Assembly: GCA_035708305.1 (NCBI GenBank)
Contig: DASSSU010000020.1
Location: 8,481 to 72,480 of the forward strand
Source: Minisyncoccota bacterium
GTDB taxonomy: Bacteria; Patescibacteriota; Minisyncoccia; Phycocordibacterales; DASSSU01
Direction of reading: 5' to 3'
DNA length: 64,000 bases
Below are positions 16,438 through 49,574 of the stretch, piece by piece. Under the pieces are notes generated by a model. The model was not told the origin of the DNA. It ran no database searches and saw only the letters and a list, made by a program, of their open reading frames with translations. The first letter of the stretch is position 1. The number at the start of each line of letters is the position of its first letter. The position numbers and the translations under genes were made by a program.

Positions 16438-16511
16438 TGCGCATGCCAGGACTCGAACCTGGGACCTCGTCATTATCAGTGACGCGCTCTAACCACCTGA
16501 GCTACACGCGC
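16438..16511 (-). tRNA. tRNA-Ile (anticodon GAU)
   Basis: Reverse complement reads GCGCGTGTAGCTCAGGTGGTTAGAGCGCGTCACTGATAATGACGAGGTCCCAGGTTCGAGTCCTGGCATGCGCA. It has a 7-bp acceptor stem, D-loop AGCTCAGGTGGTTAGAGC, anticodon loop CTGATAA and T-loop GGTTCGAGTCC. CCA is not encoded. Confidence 0.85.
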
Positions 16512-21282: not shown

Positions 21283-22170
21283 TTACACGTTCTGTAATTT
21301 TTCTATATCGATCTTTTTCATCTTCATCATCGCGTTCATCGCTGCAGGTTTGTTCATCACGAGCTCGCCCATGTTTTTCGGAATGATTTGCCATGACACG
21401 CCGTACTTGTCTTTCAGCCATCCGCACTGTTCGGACTCCGGTACAGCCGAGAGCTTTTCCCAGTAGTAGTCAATTTCCGCTTGGTCGTCGCAATTCACAA
21501 TGAACGAAACCGCTTCGTTCAAATCAAATTGGTGCATATCGCGGCCGGAATCCATAGCCGCAAACCAAACACCAAGAAGCTGGAAGTCGAGATAAGCAAT
21601 CTTGCTTGCGTCGTCCGGCGCCGTGCCCGGTTCATACGGAAACGTATTCCCTTTCTGGAAATCTTTGAAAACGGAAAGATAAAAATCACGCGCCTCTTCC
21701 GCTTTCCCGGCATTCTCATGAATGAACATGATCGATGGAGTAATCTTCGGCCGAGGATCGCCTTCAGGATTCGTGAGTATAAGCTGCCAAGAAAGGCCGT
21801 ATTTATCTTCAACCCACCCATACCACGGACTGAACGGATACTCGCCAAGCTCCATCAAAACTTTGCCGCCGTCCGAGAGTTTCTCCCAATACCCATCAAC
21901 TTCTTCCCTGCTCTCACAATTTACAAGAAATGATTTGGAGGGGTTGAACCTGAATATCGGGCCGCCATCGAGCGCGAAAAAAGATTGGCCAAAAAGTTCG
22001 AAGAACCCGTTCAAAACTTTTCCATCCATCCCCTGCAAATGTTTGTCCTCGGCATTTTCCGGATAATACACCGTGTCGACAATCTTCGAGTCTGGAAATA
22101 CCGACACATAAAAGTTCATCGCTTCTTCGCAATTTTTATCAAACCACAATCCTGGTACGATTTTTTGCAT
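21283..22170 (-). CDS. Tandem VOC-family protein (PhnB / 3-demethylubiquinone-9 3-methyltransferase-like, two repeats)
   Basis: Two ~140-aa repeats, each starting like PF06983 proteins (QKIVPGLWFDKNCEEAMNFYVSVFPDSKI and KITPSIMFIHENAGKAEEARDFYLSVFKD). Confidence 0.6.
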   Translation of the reverse strand: MQKIVPGLWFDKNCEEAMNFYVSVFPDSKIVDTVYYPENAEDKHLQGMDGKVLNGFFELFGQSFFALDGGPIFRFNPSKSFLVNCESREEVDGYWEKLSDGGKVLMELGEYPFSPWYGWVEDKYGLSWQLILTNPEGDPRPKITPSIMFIHENAGKAEEARDFYLSVFKDFQKGNTFPYEPGTAPDDASKIAYLDFQLLGVWFAAMDSGRDMHQFDLNEAVSFIVNCDDQAEIDYYWEKLSAVPESEQCGWLKDKYGVSWQIIPKNMGELVMNKPAAMNAMMKMKKIDIEKLQNV

Positions 22171-22192
22171 ATTTTTTATTTAAATAATAACT

Positions 22193-22786
22193 TTAAACTT
22201 CAATCGTGCCTGTTTTGACTTCTCCTGCCCGTTTGTATGACGCGATGATTATACCAGTTGTCGTGACTTCACATTCCAGCAATTTAAATGCTGCGGGAAT
22301 CGCACCATTGTCAAACAACTTCTTTCCTGAACCGAGCGTCAGCGGGTAAATTTTGAGCCGAAGTTCATCCACCAAATCGTTCGCAAGAAGTAACTGAACG
22401 AGTTTGCTGCTACCCCAAACTTGAATGTCGCGACCATTTCCCTCTTTGAGCCTTTTGATATCTTCCACACTTTTGATAAATACGGTGTTTTCCCAATCTG
22501 TCTCTTCTACGGTATTGGACAGAACATATTTTGTCCCATCCGTGATTGCCAGCCAAAAATCCGTATGCTTCGGCCAGTATGGTTCCCAAATTCCGAAAGT
22601 TTTTCTTCCTAAAAGATAATCGGCGGGTTCCATCTCCTTTTTCACGATCTTTCCCGAGACCTCATCCGCATACGAGGCTGTCCAGCCGCCATACTTAAAC
22701 CCGCCCGATGTATCTTCCTCAGGCCCACCGGGCGCTTGCATGACTCCGTCGAGCGTTATCATTTCTATGACAATGATTTTTCTCAT
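22193..22786 (-). CDS. RibD C-terminal domain / dihydrofolate-reductase-like reductase (YwjB family)
   Basis: MRKIIVIEMITLDGVMQAPGGPEEDTSGGFKYGGWT is the RibD_C family N-terminus. 197 aa. Confidence 0.7.
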   Translation of the reverse strand: MRKIIVIEMITLDGVMQAPGGPEEDTSGGFKYGGWTASYADEVSGKIVKKEMEPADYLLGRKTFGIWEPYWPKHTDFWLAITDGTKYVLSNTVEETDWENTVFIKSVEDIKRLKEGNGRDIQVWGSSKLVQLLLANDLVDELRLKIYPLTLGSGKKLFDNGAIPAAFKLLECEVTTTGIIIASYKRAGEVKTGTIEV

Positions 22787-24770: not shown

Positions 24771-25466
24771 TTATTTTTTGGCTTCTGCCGTGTCCGCCGC
24801 TTTCGCCTTTGTGGACGTGTGGCTTTCGCGCCCTTCCTTGGAAGATCTTTTCTCTTCGCCCGAAAGTCGGGAAAGTGCCAAAACAGCGGCCCGAGCGTTG
24901 TTCAGGGAATTCTTACTTCTGGAGAGAATTTTTGCCGACACGTCATGCACGCCGCCAAGGTCAAGCACGCTTCGTACGGCGCTTCCTGCCACCAAGCCCT
25001 TTCCTGGAGCTGGCATGATCACCAAACGCGAACTGCAATACTTTGCTTCCACTTCGTGAGGAATGGACATGTTTTTCTGGAGAGAAAGCTTCAACATGTT
25101 TTTCTTGGCATTGTTGAATGCTTTTTCGATCGCAATGGCGGTATCTGCACCCTTGCCCAAACCAACCCCCACCCGGCCTTTTCGGTCTCCGGCGGCAAGC
25201 GTCACGCTGAAACTAAAGCGGCGGCCTCCTGCCATCACACGGGTCACACGGCGGATATCCAGAATTTTTTGATCAAATTCCGGCTTGAATTTTTCAGCGT
25301 TCCTTCTTCCTCGAGGATTTCTTCCTCCCATCGGTGAACGTCTTCGATCCCGCCCATCTCGCGAGCCATTGAAACGATTCTGAGGAGCACCTTCACGGCC
25401 TGAAGCCACGGAAGCGGTTCCTCCTTCTTTTCTCTCCTGTACTTTTGTAATATTTTCGTCTGCCAT
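24771..25466 (-). CDS. rpsE: 30S ribosomal protein S5 with N- and C-terminal extensions
   Basis: Core RVTRVMAGGRRFSFSVTLAAGDRKGRVGVGLGKGADTAIAIEKA, plus an RG-rich ~60-aa N-extension and a KA-rich C-tail. 231 aa. Confidence 0.9.
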   Translation of the reverse strand: MADENITKVQERKEGGTASVASGREGAPQNRFNGSRDGRDRRRSPMGGRNPRGRRNAEKFKPEFDQKILDIRRVTRVMAGGRRFSFSVTLAAGDRKGRVGVGLGKGADTAIAIEKAFNNAKKNMLKLSLQKNMSIPHEVEAKYCSSRLVIMPAPGKGLVAGSAVRSVLDLGGVHDVSAKILSRSKNSLNNARAAVLALSRLSGEEKRSSKEGRESHTSTKAKAADTAEAKK

Positions 25467-26413: not shown

Positions 26414-26477
26414 ATTTTTAAAACTATTTGTTTTGTTTGTGAGCTGTGGTTTGATGTTGAATTATGTATTTTGTGTC

Positions 26478-26660
26478 AGCCAAGCTTCCCTGCGTCAGCC
26501 AAGAGTTTCTTTTTGAGTGCAGTTCAAGGCGTGATTGAGATCTTTGATGTGAGCCGTACTCGTGCGTACGGTGAATGTCAAAATCTCAATCACAACGCAG
26601 AAATGTGCCAAAAAGGGACTCTTGGGGCTACCAGATTTCAAAAAGGGACTCCCCTCCCAC
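26478..26660. repeat. Structured intergenic repeat element, copy 1 (between rplF and rpsH; 3' end overlaps the rpsH stop region)
   Basis: ~170 bp with a 13-bp outer stem (gcgtgattgagat ... atctcaatcac) enclosing a ccgtac..gtacgg palindrome and a tttga..tcaaa stem. Homologous to copy 2 at 27080-27265, and contains a local direct repeat aaaaagggactc x2. Confidence 0.6.
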
Positions 26661-27020
26661 TCTCATTTTTCTCGCCTCATCCCCGGTCATGACCCCCTTT
26701 GAAGTGGAGACAACCAACATTCCATATCCATGCTTCACTGGATAAATATCCGCAGCATGAATGTACACTCTCTTGGAAGGTTTGGAATGTCTTTTGACTC
26801 CCTTAATCTTTGAAACAGCTGCTCCTTTTTTTAATTCAACTTCAAGCCACGTTCGTTTGTCTTTATCGGTTTTCTTTGTCTGTGATTCGATGTACCCGTT
26901 TTTCTGAAGTACTTCAGCGATGTTTTGCAAAATCTTTGAATACGGAACGAGCACGGTGTCTTTGCCCGCGTTCGTTGCGTTTTTCAACCGAATGATGAAA
27001 TCTGAAATAGAATCTTGCAT
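26628..27020 (-). CDS. rpsH: 30S ribosomal protein S8 (ORF track extends to a TTG at 27080; ATG at 27020 gives the canonical MQDSISDFIIRLKNA start)
   Basis: MQDSISDFIIRLKNATNAGKDTVLVPYSKILQNIAEVLQKNGYI and the C-terminal GGESLFEIW match S8. Confidence 0.9.
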   Translation of the reverse strand: MQDSISDFIIRLKNATNAGKDTVLVPYSKILQNIAEVLQKNGYIESQTKKTDKDKRTWLEVELKKGAAVSKIKGVKRHSKPSKRVYIHAADIYPVKHGYGMLVVSTSKGVMTGDEARKMRVGGESLFEIW

Positions 27021-27079
27021 ATGATTAATTATTTTTTTCTTTGCTTGCGTCAACGGGTTCCGATTCCTTGCACCAGCCA

Positions 27080-27265
27080 AGCTTTCATTTCAATCTTGGC
27101 ACGTCAGCCGAACTTTCATTTCTGAGTGCTATTCGAAGGCAAATGTTTTCTTTTGGTGATGAGCCGTACTCTTCCGTACAGTGAATGCCAAAATGAAACA
27201 TTTGCCAAAGAAGAGTGCCAGAGATGAAAGTTCGGAGCTACCAGGAGGATTTGCGCACTCCCGGC
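27080..27265. repeat. Structured intergenic repeat element, copy 2 (between rpsH and rpsZ; 3' end overlaps the rpsZ stop region)
   Basis: Homologous to copy 1 (shared gtcagcc, gagtgc, gagccgtact, gtgaatg.caaaat, ctaccag and ctcccctcc blocks). Its outer stem is a different sequence (ggcaaatgttt ... aaacatttgcc) and its inner stem tttgg..ccaaa has compensatory changes. Confidence 0.6.
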
Positions 27266-27423
27266 ACCTTCCCCTCCACCGCCAATTCCCGAAAGCAAAT
27301 TCTGCACAAATCAAAATCCCGCATATAACCATGCTTGCGCCCGCACTTAAAACACCGCCGCACGAGACGCGTGCTAAACTTTGGTTTTTCCTGAGATCTT
27401 GCAACAACTGATTTCTTTGCCAT
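27238..27423 (-). CDS. rpsZ: 30S ribosomal protein S14, type Z (zinc-binding, 61 aa), embedded in a longer artefactual ORF in the track
   Basis: MAKKSVVARSQEKPKFSTRLVRRCFKCGRKHGYMRDFDLCRICFRELAVEGKVPGVRKSSW has the 4-Cys (CxxC...CxxC) S14-Z signature. The upstream in-frame 119 aa have no ribosomal-protein similarity. Confidence 0.85.
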   Translation of the reverse strand: MAKKSVVARSQEKPKFSTRLVRRCFKCGRKHGYMRDFDLCRICFRELAVEGKVPGVRKSSW

Positions 27424-27550: not shown

Positions 27551-28681
27551 TTATTCTGATTCCCACATTCCCAGCCACATCCAGGCGAGATTGTAGAAGT
27601 CGTATTTCGACGGATCGGCTCCGGAGAGCTTCTGCACGTACATGGTATGCGTCGCATTCGGATACAGGATTCTCCATACCGGCAGAAGCGCTGCATAGTG
27701 CGCACCCGACTCATAGCTGACCGAAGCGGTTCCGTTGGAACGATACGTCGCAAAAATTTCTCCTTTCTTGTTCCAATCAAATGCCAATGGAACGGTCATA
27801 CTTTTTAAGAATGACAGAGCCCGCGGATCCTTTGAATATTCGTAGTCAAGCGCCACTCGGTATGGTACGCGGATCGCATCCCAATCGTACCCAGATGCCG
27901 CCTCGCCGTTCATTTGGAAATTGGTCGTGAAGTTCCCATGGGAATCAACCCGGCACCAGTCCGTCGGAAGCCCTGCCGATCCGCGGCATTCCGAATAAAT
28001 TTTGTAGGAAGAATCTACGAGCTCCATCCAATCATGACTGGGATCCATTTGTGCAAACACACGATACGCATACGGTGCCAAGTATGAAGGGTTCAAAGTT
28101 GCTCCACTTTCGCCCGCCGTCCAGTTGCCGGCAGTGACATACCGAGTACCCGCAACTTTTTTTGTCTCGTTGTTCCAAATCCCCTGAAGGATTTTTTTGG
28201 ATTCCTGATCATACTGCGGCATGTTCCACCTTCGCGCCGCCAAGTGAAGCGCATACGCAATATCGGTATCAGCATCCGTCGCAGCATTCCAGTCTGTGAC
28301 TTTGCCATTTGAGTACTGCCAAGCAAAGAGCCCATCACCGCGCTGCAAATGAGTCTTTGTCCAATTCCAGACATGTCGGAACACTGTTCGGTCGTTCTCT
28401 CCAACCGCGATCAGCATCATGTATGCCTGACTTTCCGAGACAGTGCCATTAGGACGGGTCTCAACAAAACCGCTCCAATGCACATACCTGTCCAAAGTGT
28501 AGAGATAAACAGAGTCTTCTTTTTTGTGAATACCAGAACCAAAAAGATCCTGCCATGTAAACTGCACCTGATGCCCAAGGAATCCAAAGAATCCTCCTGC
28601 TGCCATCAGTGTTCCCGCAAAGAATACTTTCACTTTACCTGCTTTTTTCTGAGAGTTTCCCCGTCTCAAACGATCCAACAT
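27551..28681 (-). CDS. Glycoside hydrolase family 8 (endo-beta-1,4-glucanase, BcsZ/CelY-like), membrane-anchored/secreted
   Basis: N-terminal TM. SESQAYMMLIAVGENDRTVFRHVWNWTKTHLQ, then DGLFAWQY, then DWNAATDADTDIAYALHLAARRW parallels the BcsZ blocks SEGQGYGM / NWT / AW / DAD. 376 aa. Confidence 0.7.
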   Translation of the reverse strand: MLDRLRRGNSQKKAGKVKVFFAGTLMAAGGFFGFLGHQVQFTWQDLFGSGIHKKEDSVYLYTLDRYVHWSGFVETRPNGTVSESQAYMMLIAVGENDRTVFRHVWNWTKTHLQRGDGLFAWQYSNGKVTDWNAATDADTDIAYALHLAARRWNMPQYDQESKKILQGIWNNETKKVAGTRYVTAGNWTAGESGATLNPSYLAPYAYRVFAQMDPSHDWMELVDSSYKIYSECRGSAGLPTDWCRVDSHGNFTTNFQMNGEAASGYDWDAIRVPYRVALDYEYSKDPRALSFLKSMTVPLAFDWNKKGEIFATYRSNGTASVSYESGAHYAALLPVWRILYPNATHTMYVQKLSGADPSKYDFYNLAWMWLGMWESE

Positions 28682-28802
28682 TTTTTTCCATTATAGCATG
28701 TTTTTTTAAAATGCAAAATTTATTTTTTCCGCTTTTGTTCTGCGCGTATTTTTTCTTTTTTGCGTTCGAAATTTACAATAAAAAAATCTAAAAATAAAAA
28801 AA

Positions 28803-31022
28803 TTATTTTTTTGAACTCTCAATAGTTTTCCATAAAGTTGTCGTTGCCGGCGTTCGCTTCGCCATTAACCACGTCACAAAAAATATTGCCACATAAAGAA
28901 AAAGAGAAAACGGAAACTGAAAAAAAGTTTTAAAAAATTCTTTTACGACTAAAAATTTTGGAAGATAACTTTCTTTTTTGACCAGTTCTTCGCCAAAAAT
29001 ATCGCGATGCCGTGTCTGATTCTGCATGACGCGGATCCCTTGCTTGAGGTGATCGGAAAAATTATCAGGAAGTGTGAAGTACGTGAGCACACCTCTCGCA
29101 TAGCCATATTTGAAGCCATTTTTTTTCGAAAAAAGAAACGAATACACATCTTCACCCGGACGTTCCACGATATTTAATTTTTTGTAAAGTTTTTGGTGAA
29201 AAGCTCTTTGCGCTCCGTAGCACGTGTAACGGTTATTTCCTCCGGCATACGAAAGGTAAACGGCATACTTCAAACGGCATCCGGCATAGAGCGCTTTTTC
29301 TATCAGCGTTCGGGGAGGGGTGGGTGTGGGAAGCGCGGAAGTAAAGTCCGCTTCCCCGAGAACAATCGGCCGCGTGAGATTTTCGAGCACCATATCGTTT
29401 CCCAGCTGAATATCCGCATCAAACACCACAGCAACATCCGCGCTGGTGAGCTGAAAAAATTGATTCACTCTTGCAGCTTTCCCTCTTCGCATCTTCTCAT
29501 CCAAAATAATGATCTTGTGAGAACCGAGGGATGCCGCTTCTCGTACGGTACCATCGGTGCTTCCATCGGAGAAAAGAAAAATTTTGTCTAACACAAAATG
29601 CTCCTGCCGCTGATGAAGAATTGACTGGAGGAATTCTTTAATATTTTTCTCTTCATTCAAAGCAGAGATACCGACGGAAACACGTGGAGGTGTCGGAACT
29701 CTGGCTGCCTCTGATCGAGAAATATACTCCGCTCTCTCCCGTTCTTCTTTTTGCAACGCAGCACGCTCCTGAAAGGCTCTGAAAAAATGCATTGAAAAAA
29801 TTGTTACCGTATGCAAAAGTGCCGTAAAGAAAAAAACGAGGAGAAATTCTCCAATACGGTGATGAAAAACAAGCGTTCCGACAAAGAAAATCAGCGCAGA
29901 CAGAAGCGCGGCGAAAGTAAACTGAAATTCCTTTTTTGCGTGGTGATACAGCACAACAGTGTAAGAAATCGTAAAGCCTGTCATAGCAAAAATGTACCAG
30001 GGTAAAAGCGGCAAAACAGCAGCCACTTTACTTCCATAAATCGCGGTAAAAAACCACTTCCCAAAAAAGATAAAAAACACCGCGCCAAGTGTGACAAAAG
30101 CAACCGTTGCAGCAAGTAACCATCGAAAGATGCCGCGTGTGTCCTTTCCTTCGCGCGTAAAGTTTGAAATTACCGAGATCATAACCGCAGAGAGGAGTGA
30201 ACCCGAAAAGAAAAGCATTTTGCCGCAGAGGGTAATAAGCGCGTACGCCCCGGCAGTTTCCGGATCAAAAAAAGCTTTCGCGAGAAAAATATCGAACGTC
30301 AAAAAGGTGAGCGTCGTCAAGCCAAGGAGAACAGTAAAAAAGAAAAATGCGCTGGGAAAAGGGATCGAATCTTTCGTAATATTTTCTTGCGGCAAATTTC
30401 CCGCGCGAACTTTCCAAAGAAAAAACAGCCCAAGAAAACACGAGAGGATCACCGAAATTGGAATGCTCAAATACGCCAGCGGTGCCAGACCCCAAACGGT
30501 GAACATTACTGCACCGATCAGCTTAAAGAGCGATTCAGAAAAAAAAATAATTCCTGCGATCGCAAAATACAAACCGCCTTGGAAAATTCCGCGAAGCAAA
30601 AATGTCAATCCTCCGAACAAAAAAATCGGGAGAAAAAACATAAGTGGCACTGCACCAGTCTCCCAGATACGGGCGAGAACGGGCAGAGCCGCGAGCCACA
30701 CAACAGACAAGATTCCCGCAAACGCCGCCACCTGCTTTCCCCAAGTGCGGAAGAAGAAAAATCCTGAAGTTTCCGGCCGCCCGCCATACCAGCCAACGCC
30801 GTGCCCTACGCTCGAAGACAGTGCGTTTAAAAAAACACTCGCCGTAGTGAGCAACGCCAAAAAAACCGCCACCAAGCTAAAATCGCCCGGCGTCAGATGG
30901 CGCCCCAAATACAGGTAAAAGATAAAATTCAAAATATTGCCAAACACCAACGCGAGACTGAAAACGGCACCCTCCCGAATTGTCTGCGGCAAAAAATTTT
31001 TTATTTTTTCCAAAGTAAGCAT
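28803..31022 (-). CDS. Fusion protein: multi-TM polysaccharide-flippase-like (Wzx/MOP-type) N-domain + GT2 glycosyltransferase C-domain
   Basis: ~14 predicted TM helices in the first ~440 aa. The C-terminal part has GT2 motifs (VSVGISALNEEKNIKEFL, FLFSDGSTDGT, VVFDADIQL). 739 aa. Confidence 0.55.
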   Translation of the reverse strand: MLTLEKIKNFLPQTIREGAVFSLALVFGNILNFIFYLYLGRHLTPGDFSLVAVFLALLTTASVFLNALSSSVGHGVGWYGGRPETSGFFFFRTWGKQVAAFAGILSVVWLAALPVLARIWETGAVPLMFFLPIFLFGGLTFLLRGIFQGGLYFAIAGIIFFSESLFKLIGAVMFTVWGLAPLAYLSIPISVILSCFLGLFFLWKVRAGNLPQENITKDSIPFPSAFFFFTVLLGLTTLTFLTFDIFLAKAFFDPETAGAYALITLCGKMLFFSGSLLSAVMISVISNFTREGKDTRGIFRWLLAATVAFVTLGAVFFIFFGKWFFTAIYGSKVAAVLPLLPWYIFAMTGFTISYTVVLYHHAKKEFQFTFAALLSALIFFVGTLVFHHRIGEFLLVFFFTALLHTVTIFSMHFFRAFQERAALQKEERERAEYISRSEAARVPTPPRVSVGISALNEEKNIKEFLQSILHQRQEHFVLDKIFLFSDGSTDGTVREAASLGSHKIIILDEKMRRGKAARVNQFFQLTSADVAVVFDADIQLGNDMVLENLTRPIVLGEADFTSALPTPTPPRTLIEKALYAGCRLKYAVYLSYAGGNNRYTCYGAQRAFHQKLYKKLNIVERPGEDVYSFLFSKKNGFKYGYARGVLTYFTLPDNFSDHLKQGIRVMQNQTRHRDIFGEELVKKESYLPKFLVVKEFFKTFFQFPFSLFLYVAIFFVTWLMAKRTPATTTLWKTIESSKK

Positions 31023-31025
31023 ACC

Positions 31026-32783
31026 CTATTTATTATTCACCAGTCCCATTTTCTGTTCTATCGTTTTTGGATCCCAAGTCTGCATGTTTGGATGAAGTGA
31101 CGGAACATACGCTTCATTGAGATGATTTTCCTGGATATATTTTTCCACGGCAGGAATTTTGAGCTGATAGAGAACTGTTTCTGGAGTTTTGTATACCATC
31201 GTGTAGAAGTTTTTGAAATACACACTCCCTTCCCATTTGTCAGACACCGGATCTTTTGCGCGCACTCGATCGGGACTGGTCGGGTTGGTCATGATCACCC
31301 ACGGTGTGTAGAGCCATGGACGCCCAAGCACTTCGTCAAAATAGATAAAGTTTCCTTCATAAATATAATTCTTGAGCGGAATGTCGCTATCAAGAAGCGT
31401 GTAGTCATGGTTAAAGCGAGTGGCGAGAATTTTCCCTCCGGTGTAATGCTCTTTGAGGTACACGGCCACCGGGTTCTTTTGATCACGCGATGTAGCACTT
31501 AAGTCATCCCGAATCACAGAAAAATTACTGGCAAAAGCGGTGCGATAAAAGTGCACACCGGTAATCGTAAAAACAAAAATCGCAAACACCGGAATGACAA
31601 GAACCGAAACCCATTTTTGCCGAACGTGAACGGCAAGATATTCCCGAACCCCGACAGCCATGAGCGTGACCGCCGCCACGGCAAACCCGATCCAGGTCAA
31701 CCCGTAGCGGGTATTGTGAAAGCCCACGTACGAGAGGAATTCAGGCGTGTAAATTGCCGCCGAACCGCGATATAAGCTGGAAACCACCGCCGCAAACGGA
31801 ACCAGCAGCGCCACAAATGCCGCGGCGACAATTGTTTTTTTCTTCACCAGCGCAATGGCAAGAATGGCACAAAAGAGAGAGAGTGGAACAAAAAACTTCC
31901 CCAGCATGTAAAAAGACGCATGCAGAAAAAAATTGACGGAGGAAAGTACGCTGTGCTGCGTCAGATCCGAGTTGATGGAAAGGTTCCAAACCTCGCCATT
32001 TCCGATACCAGCAAATGCAAGCGGACTTCCGGCGAACGCCCAGCTATTCAGTACGATCAGAACCATTCCCACCGCCGCAAGAACGCCATAGAGTACCGTG
32101 AGTGCTTCAGATTCGGAGTATGTTTTTTTCTTGCGGTACATTTGCACCCATAGCATGAACACCAAAACCGGAATGAGCAGCAGACCTTCATACCTCGAAA
32201 GACAGGTGAGCGTAACAAAGAGTGCCGTAAGCAAGATATATCTCAGACGCTCATACTTCATCCAGAGCGTGAAGAAGTACGCGGTTCCAAAAAGCATGCT
32301 CATGAAGAGGATTTCTGTCATTGGCACAGACGCGTAGTAGAGAACAAAAGGATTAAAGACGTATAGCAACGTTCCCAAGAAACTCAATATTTTTCGTCCA
32401 CTGAGTTCCAGCAGTAAGCGATACAGAAACACGCTTCCCATGGCAAAAAAGGGAATGAGCGCCGCAGCCCCCATGAGTCCCGTACGAAACAAAAAATCCG
32501 ACAGAGAAAATGGCGCCATGACCACGTGTAAAAGCGGCGGCCACGTACCGAGCTGGCTGACTCCCGGCGTCATGCTGTCGATCAGGATCCGAGCGAAAAT
32601 CATATGTGCCACTTCATCAGCAAGTGCTGTGGTTAAGTGTTTCGTGGAAACATACCACGCCATAAGCGAAGCTGAGGTGACCGAGATCAACACCAGCGCG
32701 CACTCGTAACGATATCGCGCAAAAAAATCCAAAAACCCGCCGCGCTCAGTATTTTCTCTGTTTGTGTTTGTATGCATGTTCAT
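31026..32783 (-). CDS. GT-C fold glycosyltransferase, PMT/GT39-like (protein O-mannosyltransferase-like) integral membrane protein
   Basis: First extracytoplasmic loop carries LADEVAHMIFARIL, resembling the PMT/ArnT catalytic DE(VHF) motif. ~11 TM followed by a large C-terminal soluble domain. 585 aa. Start overlaps the next gene's stop by 4 nt. Confidence 0.5.
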   Translation of the reverse strand: MNMHTNTNRENTERGGFLDFFARYRYECALVLISVTSASLMAWYVSTKHLTTALADEVAHMIFARILIDSMTPGVSQLGTWPPLLHVVMAPFSLSDFLFRTGLMGAAALIPFFAMGSVFLYRLLLELSGRKILSFLGTLLYVFNPFVLYYASVPMTEILFMSMLFGTAYFFTLWMKYERLRYILLTALFVTLTCLSRYEGLLLIPVLVFMLWVQMYRKKKTYSESEALTVLYGVLAAVGMVLIVLNSWAFAGSPLAFAGIGNGEVWNLSINSDLTQHSVLSSVNFFLHASFYMLGKFFVPLSLFCAILAIALVKKKTIVAAAFVALLVPFAAVVSSLYRGSAAIYTPEFLSYVGFHNTRYGLTWIGFAVAAVTLMAVGVREYLAVHVRQKWVSVLVIPVFAIFVFTITGVHFYRTAFASNFSVIRDDLSATSRDQKNPVAVYLKEHYTGGKILATRFNHDYTLLDSDIPLKNYIYEGNFIYFDEVLGRPWLYTPWVIMTNPTSPDRVRAKDPVSDKWEGSVYFKNFYTMVYKTPETVLYQLKIPAVEKYIQENHLNEAYVPSLHPNMQTWDPKTIEQKMGLVNNK

Positions 32784-35071
32784 ATTTGGTCGCGAAGATT
32801 AACCGGATTATTTTGGGAAGGCTGATTTTCCGCCGCTCTCATTTTCACCGGAGCGGTTTGAGGAGCTTCTGAGCGCACCCCGTGTTTCGTTTTGTCCCAG
32901 TAATACGGATTGGTAATGAACTGGACAGCACCGCGCGTGGTGGCGTACGCGAGCATCACCCAGTAAAAAATCGAAAGCAGGTTGTATTTCACCAATGAAT
33001 ACCGCCCGCGCTGGTATGAAGAGAGCAAGTTGAGATACGTGAAAACGAAATTCCCCGTTAAAAAAGTGAAGACGGAAATATAGAGCACGACCTTTGGAAA
33101 AAGTTCCTGCACAAAAAGCGGCTGAAAAATGAGCCACACGAGAAATATGATCCAAAAGAAAAGATTGAGGATGTTGATGAGCACGGTCCCAGGAACCACA
33201 AACAAGAACCCGAGAAACGCTCCCCAACCGCCGATCTCATCTTTGAAACGAAGCGGGTGGCGCAAGTGCACGATACTGGTTTGGATAAACCCCTTCATCC
33301 AACGCGATCGCTGGTTGGCCCAAGCGCGAAACGTGCTCGTCGCCTCTTCCCGACTCACAGAGTTGAGCAACCCGGTCTGAAAGCCTCGTCGATGGAGACG
33401 GATACCCAGATCACAGTCTTCTGTGACATTGTACGGATCCCAGCCGCCGATCTCGCGAAGCATATCCACCCGAAAATGTGTGCTGTGTCCTGACAGCGGA
33501 AGCGGAATGCCCATTTTATGAAGTCCGGGAAGAAAATAGTCGTAGTGGAAAGAAAACTCAGAGTTGAAAAGCCTCGTGATCACGCCATCATCAGAGTTGT
33601 AATGATCAAGCCGTGTCTGCAACACTCCTAAGTGCGGTTTTTTTTGAAACGCCAAAACCGCTTTTTTAAGCTGGTCCGGATCGGGAATAATTTCCGCATC
33701 ATAGATAGAGAGAAAAACTCCTCTCGTGTGAAGCAGCGCGACATTCAGCGCCTTTGGCTTCGTCTTTGGCTTCACATCCGGCAAAATCAGCATCTTCATG
33801 TGCCCAGGGAGTTCGGCGTTTTCAAGCGCATGGATGGTTTCTGTATCGTATTCTTCAAGCGTGATAATCATCTCAAGTTTTTCCGGTGGATAATCAATCG
33901 ATGTCATGGCACGGACAATCTGATCCACCACTTCCGATTCCTGGTAGAGCGGAATCAAAACCGTATACAGAGGAAGGTCTTCATCCCGAAGCGCAGCAAT
34001 TTCTTCCCGTGAGAAATCCAAGACATTATCAGAACGCACTGCTTTCCAAACCACCAAAAGCTTGAAGAGCAAAATAAAAAAATAAAAAAACGCGGAAATT
34101 CCCACCCACACCACCAGCAAGGGAACATGAAAAGCTTTGGATAAGAAGAGACTGATGCCAATGAATACTGCTAAAAGTATGACGATGAGTGAAACAGTTT
34201 CAAAGTAAAAGTGCTTTTTCGCGCTCATGATGTCCGAAAGGAAAAGGAAATCTTTTGTGTTTTCAAAATCATTTTCAAATCGCTCGGAGTGGTGCGGATA
34301 ATCCAAAAATTTAAAAAACGCCAAAAGGAAATACTCGCATCGAAGTGCGATTCCGCCAAACAGAAGTTCGAAACCGGTACCCAGGGCATTGACCTTGCTC
34401 TTGCCGCTTTCGCGTGCCGCAAAATGGATCGGCACTTCTGTAATGCGCCATTTCATATGACTCGCCTTGTAGAGAAATTCATAATCAAACCCCCACTTTG
34501 AAGGAGAGAGCGGCACACTCTCCACCACCCTTCTCCGAAACACCTTCAAGCCGGACTGCACATCTATCGGTGTCCCCAGAAGCAGCCTGCCAAAAACATT
34601 TCGAAAAACCCTGCTCAGAAAGCTTCGTACACTTTTTTCTTCCGTTCTTGTCTTTCGGTTCGCCACCACAATGTCGGCTGACTCCAATTTTTTTATCATT
34701 TCCGGAATAGTCTCCGGCGGATACTGGAGATCAGCATCGATCATAGCAATAATACCGGTATCTGCGTGAGTTATTCCTTCAAGCAACGAGTAGGATTTTC
34801 CCTTCTTCCCCTTCTTGCGATACAACCCCATCGGGAAAGATGGCTGATAATGTTCCAGGTACTCAAACGTTCCATCTGAAGAATGGTCGTCAATAAAAAT
34901 CACCTCGTAGTTGATGCAAGCGTTTTCAAAAGTACGATCCAAACGCTCCAGAAACAGTGGAAGATTCCCCCGTTCATCGAGAACTGGAACAACAACAGAA
35001 ACTTCAGGCTTTGCGTAAATGATCTGGTCAGTAAATTTTCGTGAAAGAGCGCGTTTTTTTTGAACATCCAA
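32780..35071 (-). CDS. Double glycosyltransferase family 2 protein: DPM1/GtrB-like polyprenyl-phosphate glycosyltransferase + processive cellulose-synthase-like GT2 (D,D,D,QxxRW)
   Basis: N-domain: VSVVVPVLDE...IFIDDHSSDGT...IAMIDADLQYPPE (DPM1/ArnC-like). TM block. Second domain: LYTVLIPLYQESEVV...SIYDAEII...NVTEDCDLG...ANQRSRWMKG (DxD, TED, QRxRW), then C-terminal TMs. 763 aa. Confidence 0.75.
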   Translation of the reverse strand: MDVQKKRALSRKFTDQIIYAKPEVSVVVPVLDERGNLPLFLERLDRTFENACINYEVIFIDDHSSDGTFEYLEHYQPSFPMGLYRKKGKKGKSYSLLEGITHADTGIIAMIDADLQYPPETIPEMIKKLESADIVVANRKTRTEEKSVRSFLSRVFRNVFGRLLLGTPIDVQSGLKVFRRRVVESVPLSPSKWGFDYEFLYKASHMKWRITEVPIHFAARESGKSKVNALGTGFELLFGGIALRCEYFLLAFFKFLDYPHHSERFENDFENTKDFLFLSDIMSAKKHFYFETVSLIVILLAVFIGISLFLSKAFHVPLLVVWVGISAFFYFFILLFKLLVVWKAVRSDNVLDFSREEIAALRDEDLPLYTVLIPLYQESEVVDQIVRAMTSIDYPPEKLEMIITLEEYDTETIHALENAELPGHMKMLILPDVKPKTKPKALNVALLHTRGVFLSIYDAEIIPDPDQLKKAVLAFQKKPHLGVLQTRLDHYNSDDGVITRLFNSEFSFHYDYFLPGLHKMGIPLPLSGHSTHFRVDMLREIGGWDPYNVTEDCDLGIRLHRRGFQTGLLNSVSREEATSTFRAWANQRSRWMKGFIQTSIVHLRHPLRFKDEIGGWGAFLGFLFVVPGTVLINILNLFFWIIFLVWLIFQPLFVQELFPKVVLYISVFTFLTGNFVFTYLNLLSSYQRGRYSLVKYNLLSIFYWVMLAYATTRGAVQFITNPYYWDKTKHGVRSEAPQTAPVKMRAAENQPSQNNPVNLRDQI

Positions 35072-49139: not shown

Positions 49140-49487
49140 ATGCCAAGAGTAAAACGAGGAACCATTAAAGCAAAGCGGCGACGAAACCTTTTGAGTCAAG
49201 TGAAAGGCTATCAGTTCGGACGCAGCACGAAGAAGCGCCAAGCACGCGAAGCGATCTTTCACGCAGGAAACCATGCCTTCGCTCACCGGCGTGACAAAAA
49301 GAACGATTACCGCCGCCTCTGGCAGGTTCAGATCAATGCCTATTTGCGCGAACTTGGCGCACCCTCCTACAGCAAATTTATGGGGCTTTTGAAAAAGAAA
49401 GAAATCGGAGTGAACCGAAAAATGCTCGCTCTCCTCGCAAGAGAAAATCCAGAAGCCTTTCAGGCAATCATCGAAAAAACAAAATAA
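49140..49487 (+). CDS. rplT: 50S ribosomal protein L20
   Basis: MPRVKRGTIKAKRRRNLLSQVKGYQFGRSTKKRQAREA matches the L20 consensus. Confidence 0.9.
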   Translation: MPRVKRGTIKAKRRRNLLSQVKGYQFGRSTKKRQAREAIFHAGNHAFAHRRDKKNDYRRLWQVQINAYLRELGAPSYSKFMGLLKKKEIGVNRKMLALLARENPEAFQAIIEKTK

Positions 49488-49489
49488 AA

Positions 49490-49535
49490 AAATAAAAACC
49501 GCTTGTGGGCGGTTTTTATTTTTTTATTTTTCTTA
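49490..49535 (+). terminator. Rho-independent terminator after rplT
   Basis: aaccgc-ttgtgg-gcggtt hairpin followed by tttatttttttattttt. Confidence 0.65.
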
Positions 49536-49574
49536 TTTTTGAGATTTCTTTCTTCCCTGCTCTTTCGCCGGGAA

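Follow-up and report, generated by a model that had tools for sequence, protein, structure and literature searches.

Among the short repeats of bacteria, bcr1 and the enterobacterial repetitive intergenic consensus (ERIC) are transcribed, lie at gene 3′ ends, and keep their structure by compensatory change (PMC3184786). We analyzed a 64,000-nt stretch of a Minisyncoccota bacterium (the window; assembly GCA_035708305.1, contig DASSSU010000020.1, positions 8,481 to 72,480), in which two hairpin elements flank rpsH, the gene for ribosomal protein S8. The family to which they belong shares with bcr1 (Bacillus cereus group, ~155 bp), which is similar to a MITE (miniature inverted-repeat transposable element), a small, non-coding and multi-copy nature, a non-conserved distribution, short flanking direct repeats (in our family, those of one young pair), and compensatory base changes that keep the structure at the RNA level (PMC3184786). 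It shares with ERIC/IRU (127 bp) an imperfect intergenic palindrome of similar size, often placed at gene 3′ ends within transcription units; ERIC can alter mRNA fate depending on its orientation (PMC3184786). Like the Correia/NEMIS, RUP, and BOX MITEs, it forms hairpins and varies in presence between strains, and it is probably non-autonomous and co-transcribed with its neighbors (PMC3184786). On balance, we favor the reading that both elements represent a new family of non-coding, structure-constrained palindromic repeats of the Candidate Phyla Radiation (CPR)/Patescibacteria, MITE/ERIC-like in character, and that they are passengers in the ribosomal-protein operon rather than an S8/L6 switch. 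The CPR/Patescibacteria have tiny, packed genomes, and very little is known of their non-coding RNA or mobile DNA.

A preliminary description of the locus had proposed homologous structured elements in both spacers beside rpsH, and we confirm this. The two long spacers are mutually homologous, and each carries a rod-like hairpin of ~127 nt in three tiers, copy 1 at 26499-26625 and copy 2 at 27108-27235 of the plus strand. A 27-nt core, GAGCCGTACTCNTNCGTACNGTGAATG, occurs exactly twice in the 64 kb, where no occurrence is expected. From base to tip, the hairpin is built of P1 (17 bp), P2 (GUGCA/UGUGC and UUC/GAA), an AAGG / AACGCA internal loop, and P3/P4. Beyond P3/P4, the tip holds a tandem G.A/A.G and a 7-bp stem GCCGUAC/GUACGGU closed by G.U, with a variable hexaloop. 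The helices named in the preliminary description are real and correspond to P3/P4, while the two further tiers, P1 and P2, were overlooked there. When both window copies are aligned by a covariance model for which only other genomes were used, we find that 94% of the cells pair and that 11 of the 43 pairs differ on both sides, yet remain paired; slid controls gave only 1-3 pairs changed on both sides. Thus, the earlier claim of a conserved secondary structure with compensatory changes stands.

In copy 1, P1 pairs 26499-26515 with 26609-26625, and P2 pairs 26517-26521 with 26604-26608 and 26523-26525 with 26600-26602. The internal loop contains a lone pair, 26528-26596, and is followed by P3 (26531-26541/26583-26593) and P4 (26543-26550/26575-26582). 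The apex (26551-26577) comprises the tandem G.A/A.G (26551-52/26573-74), the G.U-closed stem (26553-59/26566-72), and the hexaloop (26560-65), and then reads AUG. Copy 2 repeats this plan on the same strand, with P1 at 27108-27124/27219-27235, P2 at 27126-27130/27214-27218 plus 27132-34/27210-12, P3 at 27138-27149/27195-27206, and P4 at 27151-27160/27185-27193. Its apex (27161-27187) runs GA, stem GCCGUAC-GUACAGU, hexaloop (27170-75), and GA AUG, with one C.A mismatch (27165/27180).

Both copies have a 5′ extension on the plus strand. That of copy 1 (26472-26498) duplicates the start of the P1 5′ arm, so that TGTGTCAGCCAAG (26472-84) and TGCGTCAGCCAAG (26491-503) form direct repeats. The sequence of this extension is conserved between the two window copies, and a similar CACCAGCCACG block stands before the S8-L6 copy of a related locus (L053). 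In the extension of copy 2 (27073-27107), the P1 5′ arm is repeated as CCAGCCAAGCTTTCA (compare TCAGCCGAACTTTCA at 27104-18), and a small hairpin GCCAAG...CTTGGC is present; CCAGCCAAGCTTTCA is a potential alternative partner of the P1 3′ arm. Another duplication reaches the gene itself. A plus-strand 13-mer, CAAAAAGGGACTC, within the rpsH coding end (26639-26651; codons E-S-L-F-E) is an exact duplicate of the copy 1 P1 3′ arm at 26609-26621. The two occurrences are 30 nt apart, and the P1 5′ arm of copy 1 could pair with either. The LFEIW end of S8 is native, as it is also found in element-free relatives; the duplicated 13-mer may have arisen as a target-derived helix or by gene conversion. 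The elements do not reach into the last codons of rpsH and rpsZ through a shared CTACCAG, as had been proposed. This motif is the complement of the Trp codon and TAG that end S8 and S14, and relatives without the element also end S8 in ...EIW, so CTACCAG lies outside the element.

The sequence is identical in two independent public samples and is therefore not an assembly artefact. Two independent Logan contigs (L058 and L059) both begin inside the copy 2 hairpin (their position 1 is window ~27210), the expected behavior where a palindrome breaks assembly graphs. The elements may thus fragment metagenome-assembled genomes (MAGs) of the CPR.

Searching 241 million metagenome records, we found the exact core at 22 loci. 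At all of them, it caps a long hairpin; the arms are wholly different in sequence, yet always paired, and the loop motifs recur. As a MAFFT alignment of the members missed the helices, we seeded a covariance model (R1) from copy 1 alone and iterated it; the final model (R2) was rebuilt from 23 matches outside the window. In the R2 alignment, 88% of the cells pair against 33-40% in slid controls, double changes occur in 36 of 43 pairs, and the covariation score reaches 0.58, compared with about 0.1 in the controls, although this alignment was fitted to the structure and its pairing and covariation counts lean toward it. The closing G.U pair of the apex is kept in 22 of the 23 members. The apical motif and the internal loop (AAGG / AACGCAG) are nearly fixed, while the helices drift by compensatory change. 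The unit measures ~90-130 nt and has no coding capacity, its variation being paired and compensatory, not codon-like. R2 also finds copies without the exact core (L034, L046, L033, L044, L053, and L060-L063), most of which still read GAGCCGUAC-N4-6-GUACGGUGA; one shows a compensatory stem change, GCCGUAU/AUACGGU. Within the window, R2 matches both copies and nothing else. A weak covariance-model match (49462-49550) falls on a bidirectional terminator of the ordinary AT-rich kind and is no family member.

The family is apparently undescribed and uncatalogued in Rfam. The preliminary description had suggested an Rfam scan; performing it with Rfam 15, we obtained only a tRNA in the window at gathering thresholds and only chance, miRNA-like hairpin matches at E<=10, so that no family matches either copy at either level. 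Literature searches by organism, theme, and core sequence returned nothing on the motif. Viral contigs gave no exact-core match, and their three relaxed-core matches are due to chance, with the hairpin absent (12-19 bits). Plasmid BLAST gave no match, and a Python descriptor for variant apices (GA-stem-loop-stem-GAA) run over 368 kb gave nothing beyond chance. Known motifs inspected by eye, namely hammerhead, K-turn, SECIS-like, loop E, hairpin ribozyme, SRP, and 6S, were discarded, as their defining nucleotides vary among the members and Rfam has no match. The apex, GAGCCGUA(U/C)...(G/A)UACGGU with a G.U pair within the AGC triad, resembles the basal helix of group II intron domain 5. The bulge, upper helix, GNRA loop, and other domains are lacking, and Rfam Intron_gpII has no match at E<=10; the likeness is a coincidence or at most a lead.

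We then compared the two strands. The complete copy 1 hairpin folds at -66.5 kcal/mol on the plus strand and -49.4 kcal/mol on the minus strand, and copy 2 at -65.3 and -53.5 kcal/mol, respectively. In a 191-nt context, copy 1 reaches -81.6 kcal/mol (z -8.1) on plus versus -63.9 (z -2.8) on minus, and in ~190-200 nt, copy 2 reaches -78.7 (z -7.3) versus -68.9 (z -4.1). The R2 model, from whose build the window sequences were excluded, scores 99.4 and 67.4 bits on plus and 20.5 and 15.8 on minus. Thus, for both copies, RNA folds better on the plus strand, which is antisense to rpsZ, rpsH, and rplF, because its G.U pairs correspond to C.A mismatches in the mRNA. Only the plus strand has the tandem G.A and the closing G.U; in the mRNA, pyrimidine mismatches stand in place of the G.A tandem. 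With DNA parameters, the strands are nearly equal (-32.3/-28.9 for copy 1 and -33.2/-29.0 for copy 2), and the asymmetry therefore lies mainly at the RNA level. Family-wide, G.U pairs outnumber A.C 1x1 mismatches on the core strand by 96:7, and the variable helices alone give 15:1, 27:7, and 26:7. The core strand is the better-folding strand in every member. In the window, the selected single strand is the plus strand, antisense to the operon.

The window itself is part of a Candidatus Paceibacterota MAG, and other hosts of the element include Saccharibacteria and Paceibacterota/Parcubacteria. Its neighbors include alaS, tuf/rpsJ, tsf/frr, rpmE, rpsU, mnmA, glycosyltransferase genes, hisS, and uppP/BacA. 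The window holds two copies, and L053, L034, L046, L033, L044, and L062 hold two or three each. Copies are often paired around one small gene, as around rpsH in the window and around rplF, rpsU, and rpmE elsewhere. Presence in the same spacers of related genomes, which a conserved leader would predict, was not borne out. Among the three closest S8 relatives, L053 (S8 61% identical) carries one copy between S8 and L6, one between L6 and L18, and a relic in the S14-S8 spacer, while L052 (68%) and L054 (61%) have compact, element-free spacers of 57, 28, and 5 nt. The element is also absent from 29 further S8 loci (L001-L029; GTDB species, mostly CPR). A different hairpin of ~50 nt, CAUUGAGCACUGGAC...GUCGAAUGCUCA, stands just upstream of rplF in the S8-L6 spacer of L052 (640-710) and L053 (~800-860). 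It is absent from the window and may be a genuine rplF leader structure of that lineage.

Two contigs of one metagenome (L049 and L051) capture a young pair, in which 129 of 131 hairpin positions are identical and the flanks are unrelated. Perfect 4-bp direct repeats bound both hairpins, TATC/TATC in L049 and TTCA/TTCA in L051. Turnover is also visible at a syntenic hisS / RNase H-like / BacA locus, where four contigs carry an element in the hisS spacer and two have an empty one (64 nt); these genomes are too diverged for target duplications to be read. The site after the BacA stop is occupied in five of five genomes, intact in some and, in others, decayed or split by other inserts of ~90 nt. 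Copies have thus been gained, lost, tandemly duplicated, interrupted, and decayed among related genomes. In the L062 tandem duplicate, the P1 arms differ by compensatory changes. Between L030 and L037, the inner 88 nt are ~96% identical and the P1 arms unrelated; at the BacA site, P1/P2 are conserved in sequence and the inner helices diverged. Together with the rpsH 13-mer, the latter two cases suggest modular exchange, or helices rebuilt from local sequence. A general origin of P1 as an inverted copy of the host gene 3′ end was rejected: flank arm duplicates number 5 against ~2 expected, although copy 1 does show one. The preliminary description had also argued against a recently transposed repeat. 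This stands insofar as the two window copies are old and diverged, with no fresh duplication, but not as an argument against mobility, since a mobile repeat family at many loci is largely what we find.

Second small insert families are nested in some of the hairpin elements, at the apex or within P3 and in either orientation (L060 1371-1744 and 2321-3067; L063/L064 2283-2469; L061 3501-3687). One such family, of ~90 nt, reads ...ACAGAAGCTGTTCAGGTTGTCACTC..AGAGCTGGCAACCTCTTGCGAAAGTC..GACTTTCTCAC; the insert of L061 is different and about 85 nt long. An RNase H-like protein that adjoins elements (PF13482, 191 aa; L034 4758-5333, homologues P0165-P0283) is extraordinarily conserved. It has 3490 matches at E<=1e-30, the best 120 of which are at least 81% identical, and the surrounding intergenic DNA is unalignable. 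Family copies at L033 (1049-2308) and L041 (5227-6486) lie near genes whose N-termini, judged by eye, resemble Y-family (UmuC/DinB-like) polymerases; in two unrelated loci, this is probably a coincidence.

The placement of the copies follows a rule. Of 32 copies, about 27 have a convergent gene on their 3′ side, whose stop codon they face across a median gap of ~6-8 nt (gene calls for the window and L044 were corrected by hand for this count). P1 often overlaps the stop codon, and the extra sequence, 20-175 nt, is on the 5′ side. The few co-directional copies are placed past an intrinsic terminator and before the promoter that follows. The elements are antisense to every nearby gene in the window and co-directional with hisS in L060-L064, so their orientation is tied to local transcription units and not to a replication-linked strand. 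Taken together, orientation and placement indicate that the folding strand is kept out of essential mRNAs.

These observations lead us to propose how the family may persist. The elements would spread as DNA, by transposition, as the 4-bp target duplication of the youngest pair suggests, and by local duplication. A trans-acting factor, either mobilizing or of the host, may read the fixed apex on the folded strand. Copies would survive only where the folding strand lies outside essential mRNA, the tolerated sites being antisense positions immediately behind a stop codon, or the interval from a terminator to the following promoter. We assume that the folded RNA would be polar or harmful when transcribed through, as the orientation rule implies. 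In the window operon, the copies would be passengers that have lengthened two spacers by about 190 bp. The weaker complementary hairpin, which sits directly after the rpsZ and rpsH stops, may uncouple translation, or it may serve as a 3′ barrier or processing site.

Several points weigh against such a mobile repeat. P1 is always an inverted repeat, but unlike classical MITE termini, its sequence differs from copy to copy. The P1 mismatch between L030 and L037 is not explained by simple cut-and-paste of a fixed unit. Target duplications are confined to the young pair, with none recognizable around older copies. Among the ~34 window open reading frames (ORFs) checked, we found no transposase, reverse transcriptase, or integrase and no autonomous insertion sequence (IS) partner, and the plasmid search was likewise empty. 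The BacA-site copy, retained in all five genomes with conserved P1/P2, hints at in-place retention by selection. Finally, the G.U bias is present in old, diverged copies, so a purely selfish model needs sampling from active lineages.

The described repeats also differ from our family. bcr1 has 5-bp duplications and a fixed consensus and bears no sequence relation to it; in the CPR family, the helices vary freely, only the apex and loops are fixed, and placement antisense after a stop is strict. ERIC has a conserved sequence consensus, terminal inverted repeats (TIRs), TA flanks, and both orientations, whereas the CPR family has no similarity to it, other hosts, and a strong orientation bias. 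Correia/NEMIS, RUP, and BOX carry conserved TIRs matching known IS, while P1 is the least conserved part of our element. Compared with all of these, the CPR family stands out by a conserved tip rather than conserved termini, a sharp strand choice, and a nearly fixed orientation.

Alternatively, the hairpin could act as an orientation-specific RNA insulator. The nascent hairpin would stop or destabilize an antisense or read-through transcript, alone or through a factor, and so protect a convergent gene 3′ end or the promoter that follows; in this operon, rpsH and rpsZ would be guarded against antisense transcription. We regard this as possible but doubtful. The folding strand is always where transcription is unwanted, as most copies are antisense with their 3′ end ~2-8 nt from the convergent stop and the hisS-locus copies lie between an intrinsic terminator and a TGnTATAAT promoter. 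The orientation that tracks local transcription units, the RNA-level strand asymmetry, and the BacA-site copy kept in five of five genomes also agree with it. Yet no T-run or U-tract follows the hairpins on either strand, and neither element has the GC-rich hairpin plus U-tract of an intrinsic terminator or attenuator. The genome does possess ordinary terminators, unlike the elements: a textbook bidirectional one stands at 49484-49530 between convergent genes (A-run, GC stem CCGCTTGTGGGCGG, T-run). Moreover, the family is rare and patchy, close relatives lack the element at the same sites, and many copies are decayed or interrupted. Insulation and mobility could be joined in a CPR-specific, U-tract-independent, orientation-specific insulator or transcript-killing signal whose G.A/G.U apex is read by a factor, and which spreads as a mobile cassette with its basal helix rebuilt locally. 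We think this combined model unlikely. Local rebuilding is hinted at by P1 arms that overlap host gene ends and by the rpsH 13-mer duplicated in P1, and if it were true, it would mean an undescribed insertion mechanism.

The strand choice also recalls integron attC sites, imperfect palindromes of 60-140 nt after each stop codon that act as a folded strand complementary to the coding strand, with structure mattering more than sequence. The strand specificity of the elements, their conserved extrahelical or non-canonical positions, and their location after the stop, opposite the gene strand, resemble attC bottom strands. The elements could accordingly be folded single-stranded DNA sites for a recombinase or an HUH-type transposase (as for attC, IS200/IS605, and REP), the core being a protein-binding site of two inverted 7-11-bp arms around 6 nt. 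Genes enclosed by two direct copies (rpsH, rplF, rpsU, and rpmE) and the 11-6-11-like layout of the core would fit, but we hold this to be quite improbable, as the strands are nearly equal with DNA parameters. In addition, attC keeps its base, with the R′′/R′ boxes RYYYAAC/GTTRRRY, and varies at the tip; the CPR family does the opposite and has no R′/R′′ GTT/AAC boxes. In each copy, the 6 nt at the center are different, which speaks against tyrosine recombination between copies, and the 4-bp direct repeats of L049 and L051 misfit HUH transposition, which leaves none. No integrase or other recombinase gene was found among the window ORFs checked, and the genes next to the elements are no cassettes but essential housekeeping genes. 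It is very unlikely that the copies are independent genes for a trans-acting small RNA, each its own plus-strand unit giving a ~130-nt rod RNA that binds a conserved protein or target. The fixed classical RNA motifs (tandem sheared G.A and invariant G.U), the strong covariation, and the 60-90 nt of extra sequence always on the 5′ side, with room for a promoter, speak for it. A search upstream of 25 copies, however, gave no consistent sigma-70 site, and no terminator follows; several copies sit just past a terminator on their own strand, and the family is too rare and patchy for a housekeeping RNA. The original proposal placed the function in the rpsZ-rpsH-rplF mRNA, as operon-specific autoregulatory sites (e.g. 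an S8/L6 rRNA mimic), attenuators, or processing sites. The location in two abnormally long spacers of a ribosomal-protein operon invites it, as with known ribosomal-protein leaders such as the S8 site of the spc operon; other copies also flank ribosomal-protein genes (rplF, rpsU, rpmE, and tuf/rpsJ), and the sense RNA is still stable (-49 and -54 kcal/mol for the hairpin alone, -64 and -69 in the ~190-200-nt spacer context). Known leaders, however, act on the sense mRNA, mimic the rRNA site, and are syntenic, whereas our element is selected on the antisense strand, with its G.U pairs and G.A tandem lost to mismatches in the mRNA. It also adjoins alaS, mnmA, hisS, BacA, and glycosyltransferase genes; L052, L054, and 29 other S8 loci lack it in the corresponding spacers, and it matches no Rfam ribosomal-protein leader even at E<=10. 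This model fails on strand, synteny, and gene association; it is largely refuted, and we give it hardly any credence.

Returning to the mobile, structure-constrained repeat that we favor, the element combines strong covariation, a clear strand choice, a core common to Saccharibacteria and Paceibacterota, a place outside Rfam, and a strict placement rule. If it is a selfish repeat, even the essential ribosomal-protein operons of reduced genomes tolerate such insertions, and assembly breaks in these MAGs would be explained. Should the placement rule stem from polarity of the folded RNA, this would suggest an unrecognized mode of ending or insulating transcription in the CPR. The case also advises checking the selected strand before long structured spacers of ribosomal-protein operons are called autoregulatory leaders.

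The cluster around rpsH runs on the minus strand in the order rpsZ, rpsH, rplF, rplR, rpsE, rplO, and secY, with rpsZ, rpsH, rplF, and secY confirmed by Pfam. At its 3′ end, copy 2 comes within 2 nt of the TAG stop of rpsZ (S14, Zn type; 27238-27423; PF00253, E 9.3e-23). Between the copies lies rpsH (26628-27020; PF00410, E 9.5e-38), whose stop is also a TAG and is likewise separated by 2 nt from copy 1 at the 3′ end of the latter. At the 5′ end of copy 1, 85 nt separate it from the start codon of rplF (L6; 25877-26413; PF00347). S8 starts at ATG 27020, giving a 130-aa product that is 100% identical to a database protein (P0001). The preliminary spacer lengths were right for rpsH-rplF (214 bp) and for the others in the cluster (18-27 bp) but not for rpsZ-rpsH, put at ~160 bp; with ATG 27020 it is 217 bp, and the shorter figure probably came from an upstream TTG taken as the rpsH start.

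The cluster is truncated at both ends. It begins at rpsZ, and upstream, a GH8 glycosyl hydrolase and family-2 glycosyltransferases (27551-35071, minus strand) take the place of rplN-rplX-rplE. Downstream of secY, RibD_C-domain and 3-dmu-9_3-mt/VOC-like genes (21283-22786, minus strand) replace the usual adk-map-infA. Before the rpsZ start, we noted a promoter-like TTGACA-16-TAGGAT (27494-27467, minus strand), followed immediately by a hairpin and T-run (27462-27443), which could be the GH8 gene terminator or a leader attenuator. The rpsE product (S5; 24771-25466, minus strand) has 231 aa against the usual ~165, being extended at the N-terminus by an Arg/Gly-rich segment and at the C-terminus by a Lys/Ala-rich tail. 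The sole gathering-level Rfam match of the window is the tRNA gene at 16438-16511 (minus strand; 70.7 bits).

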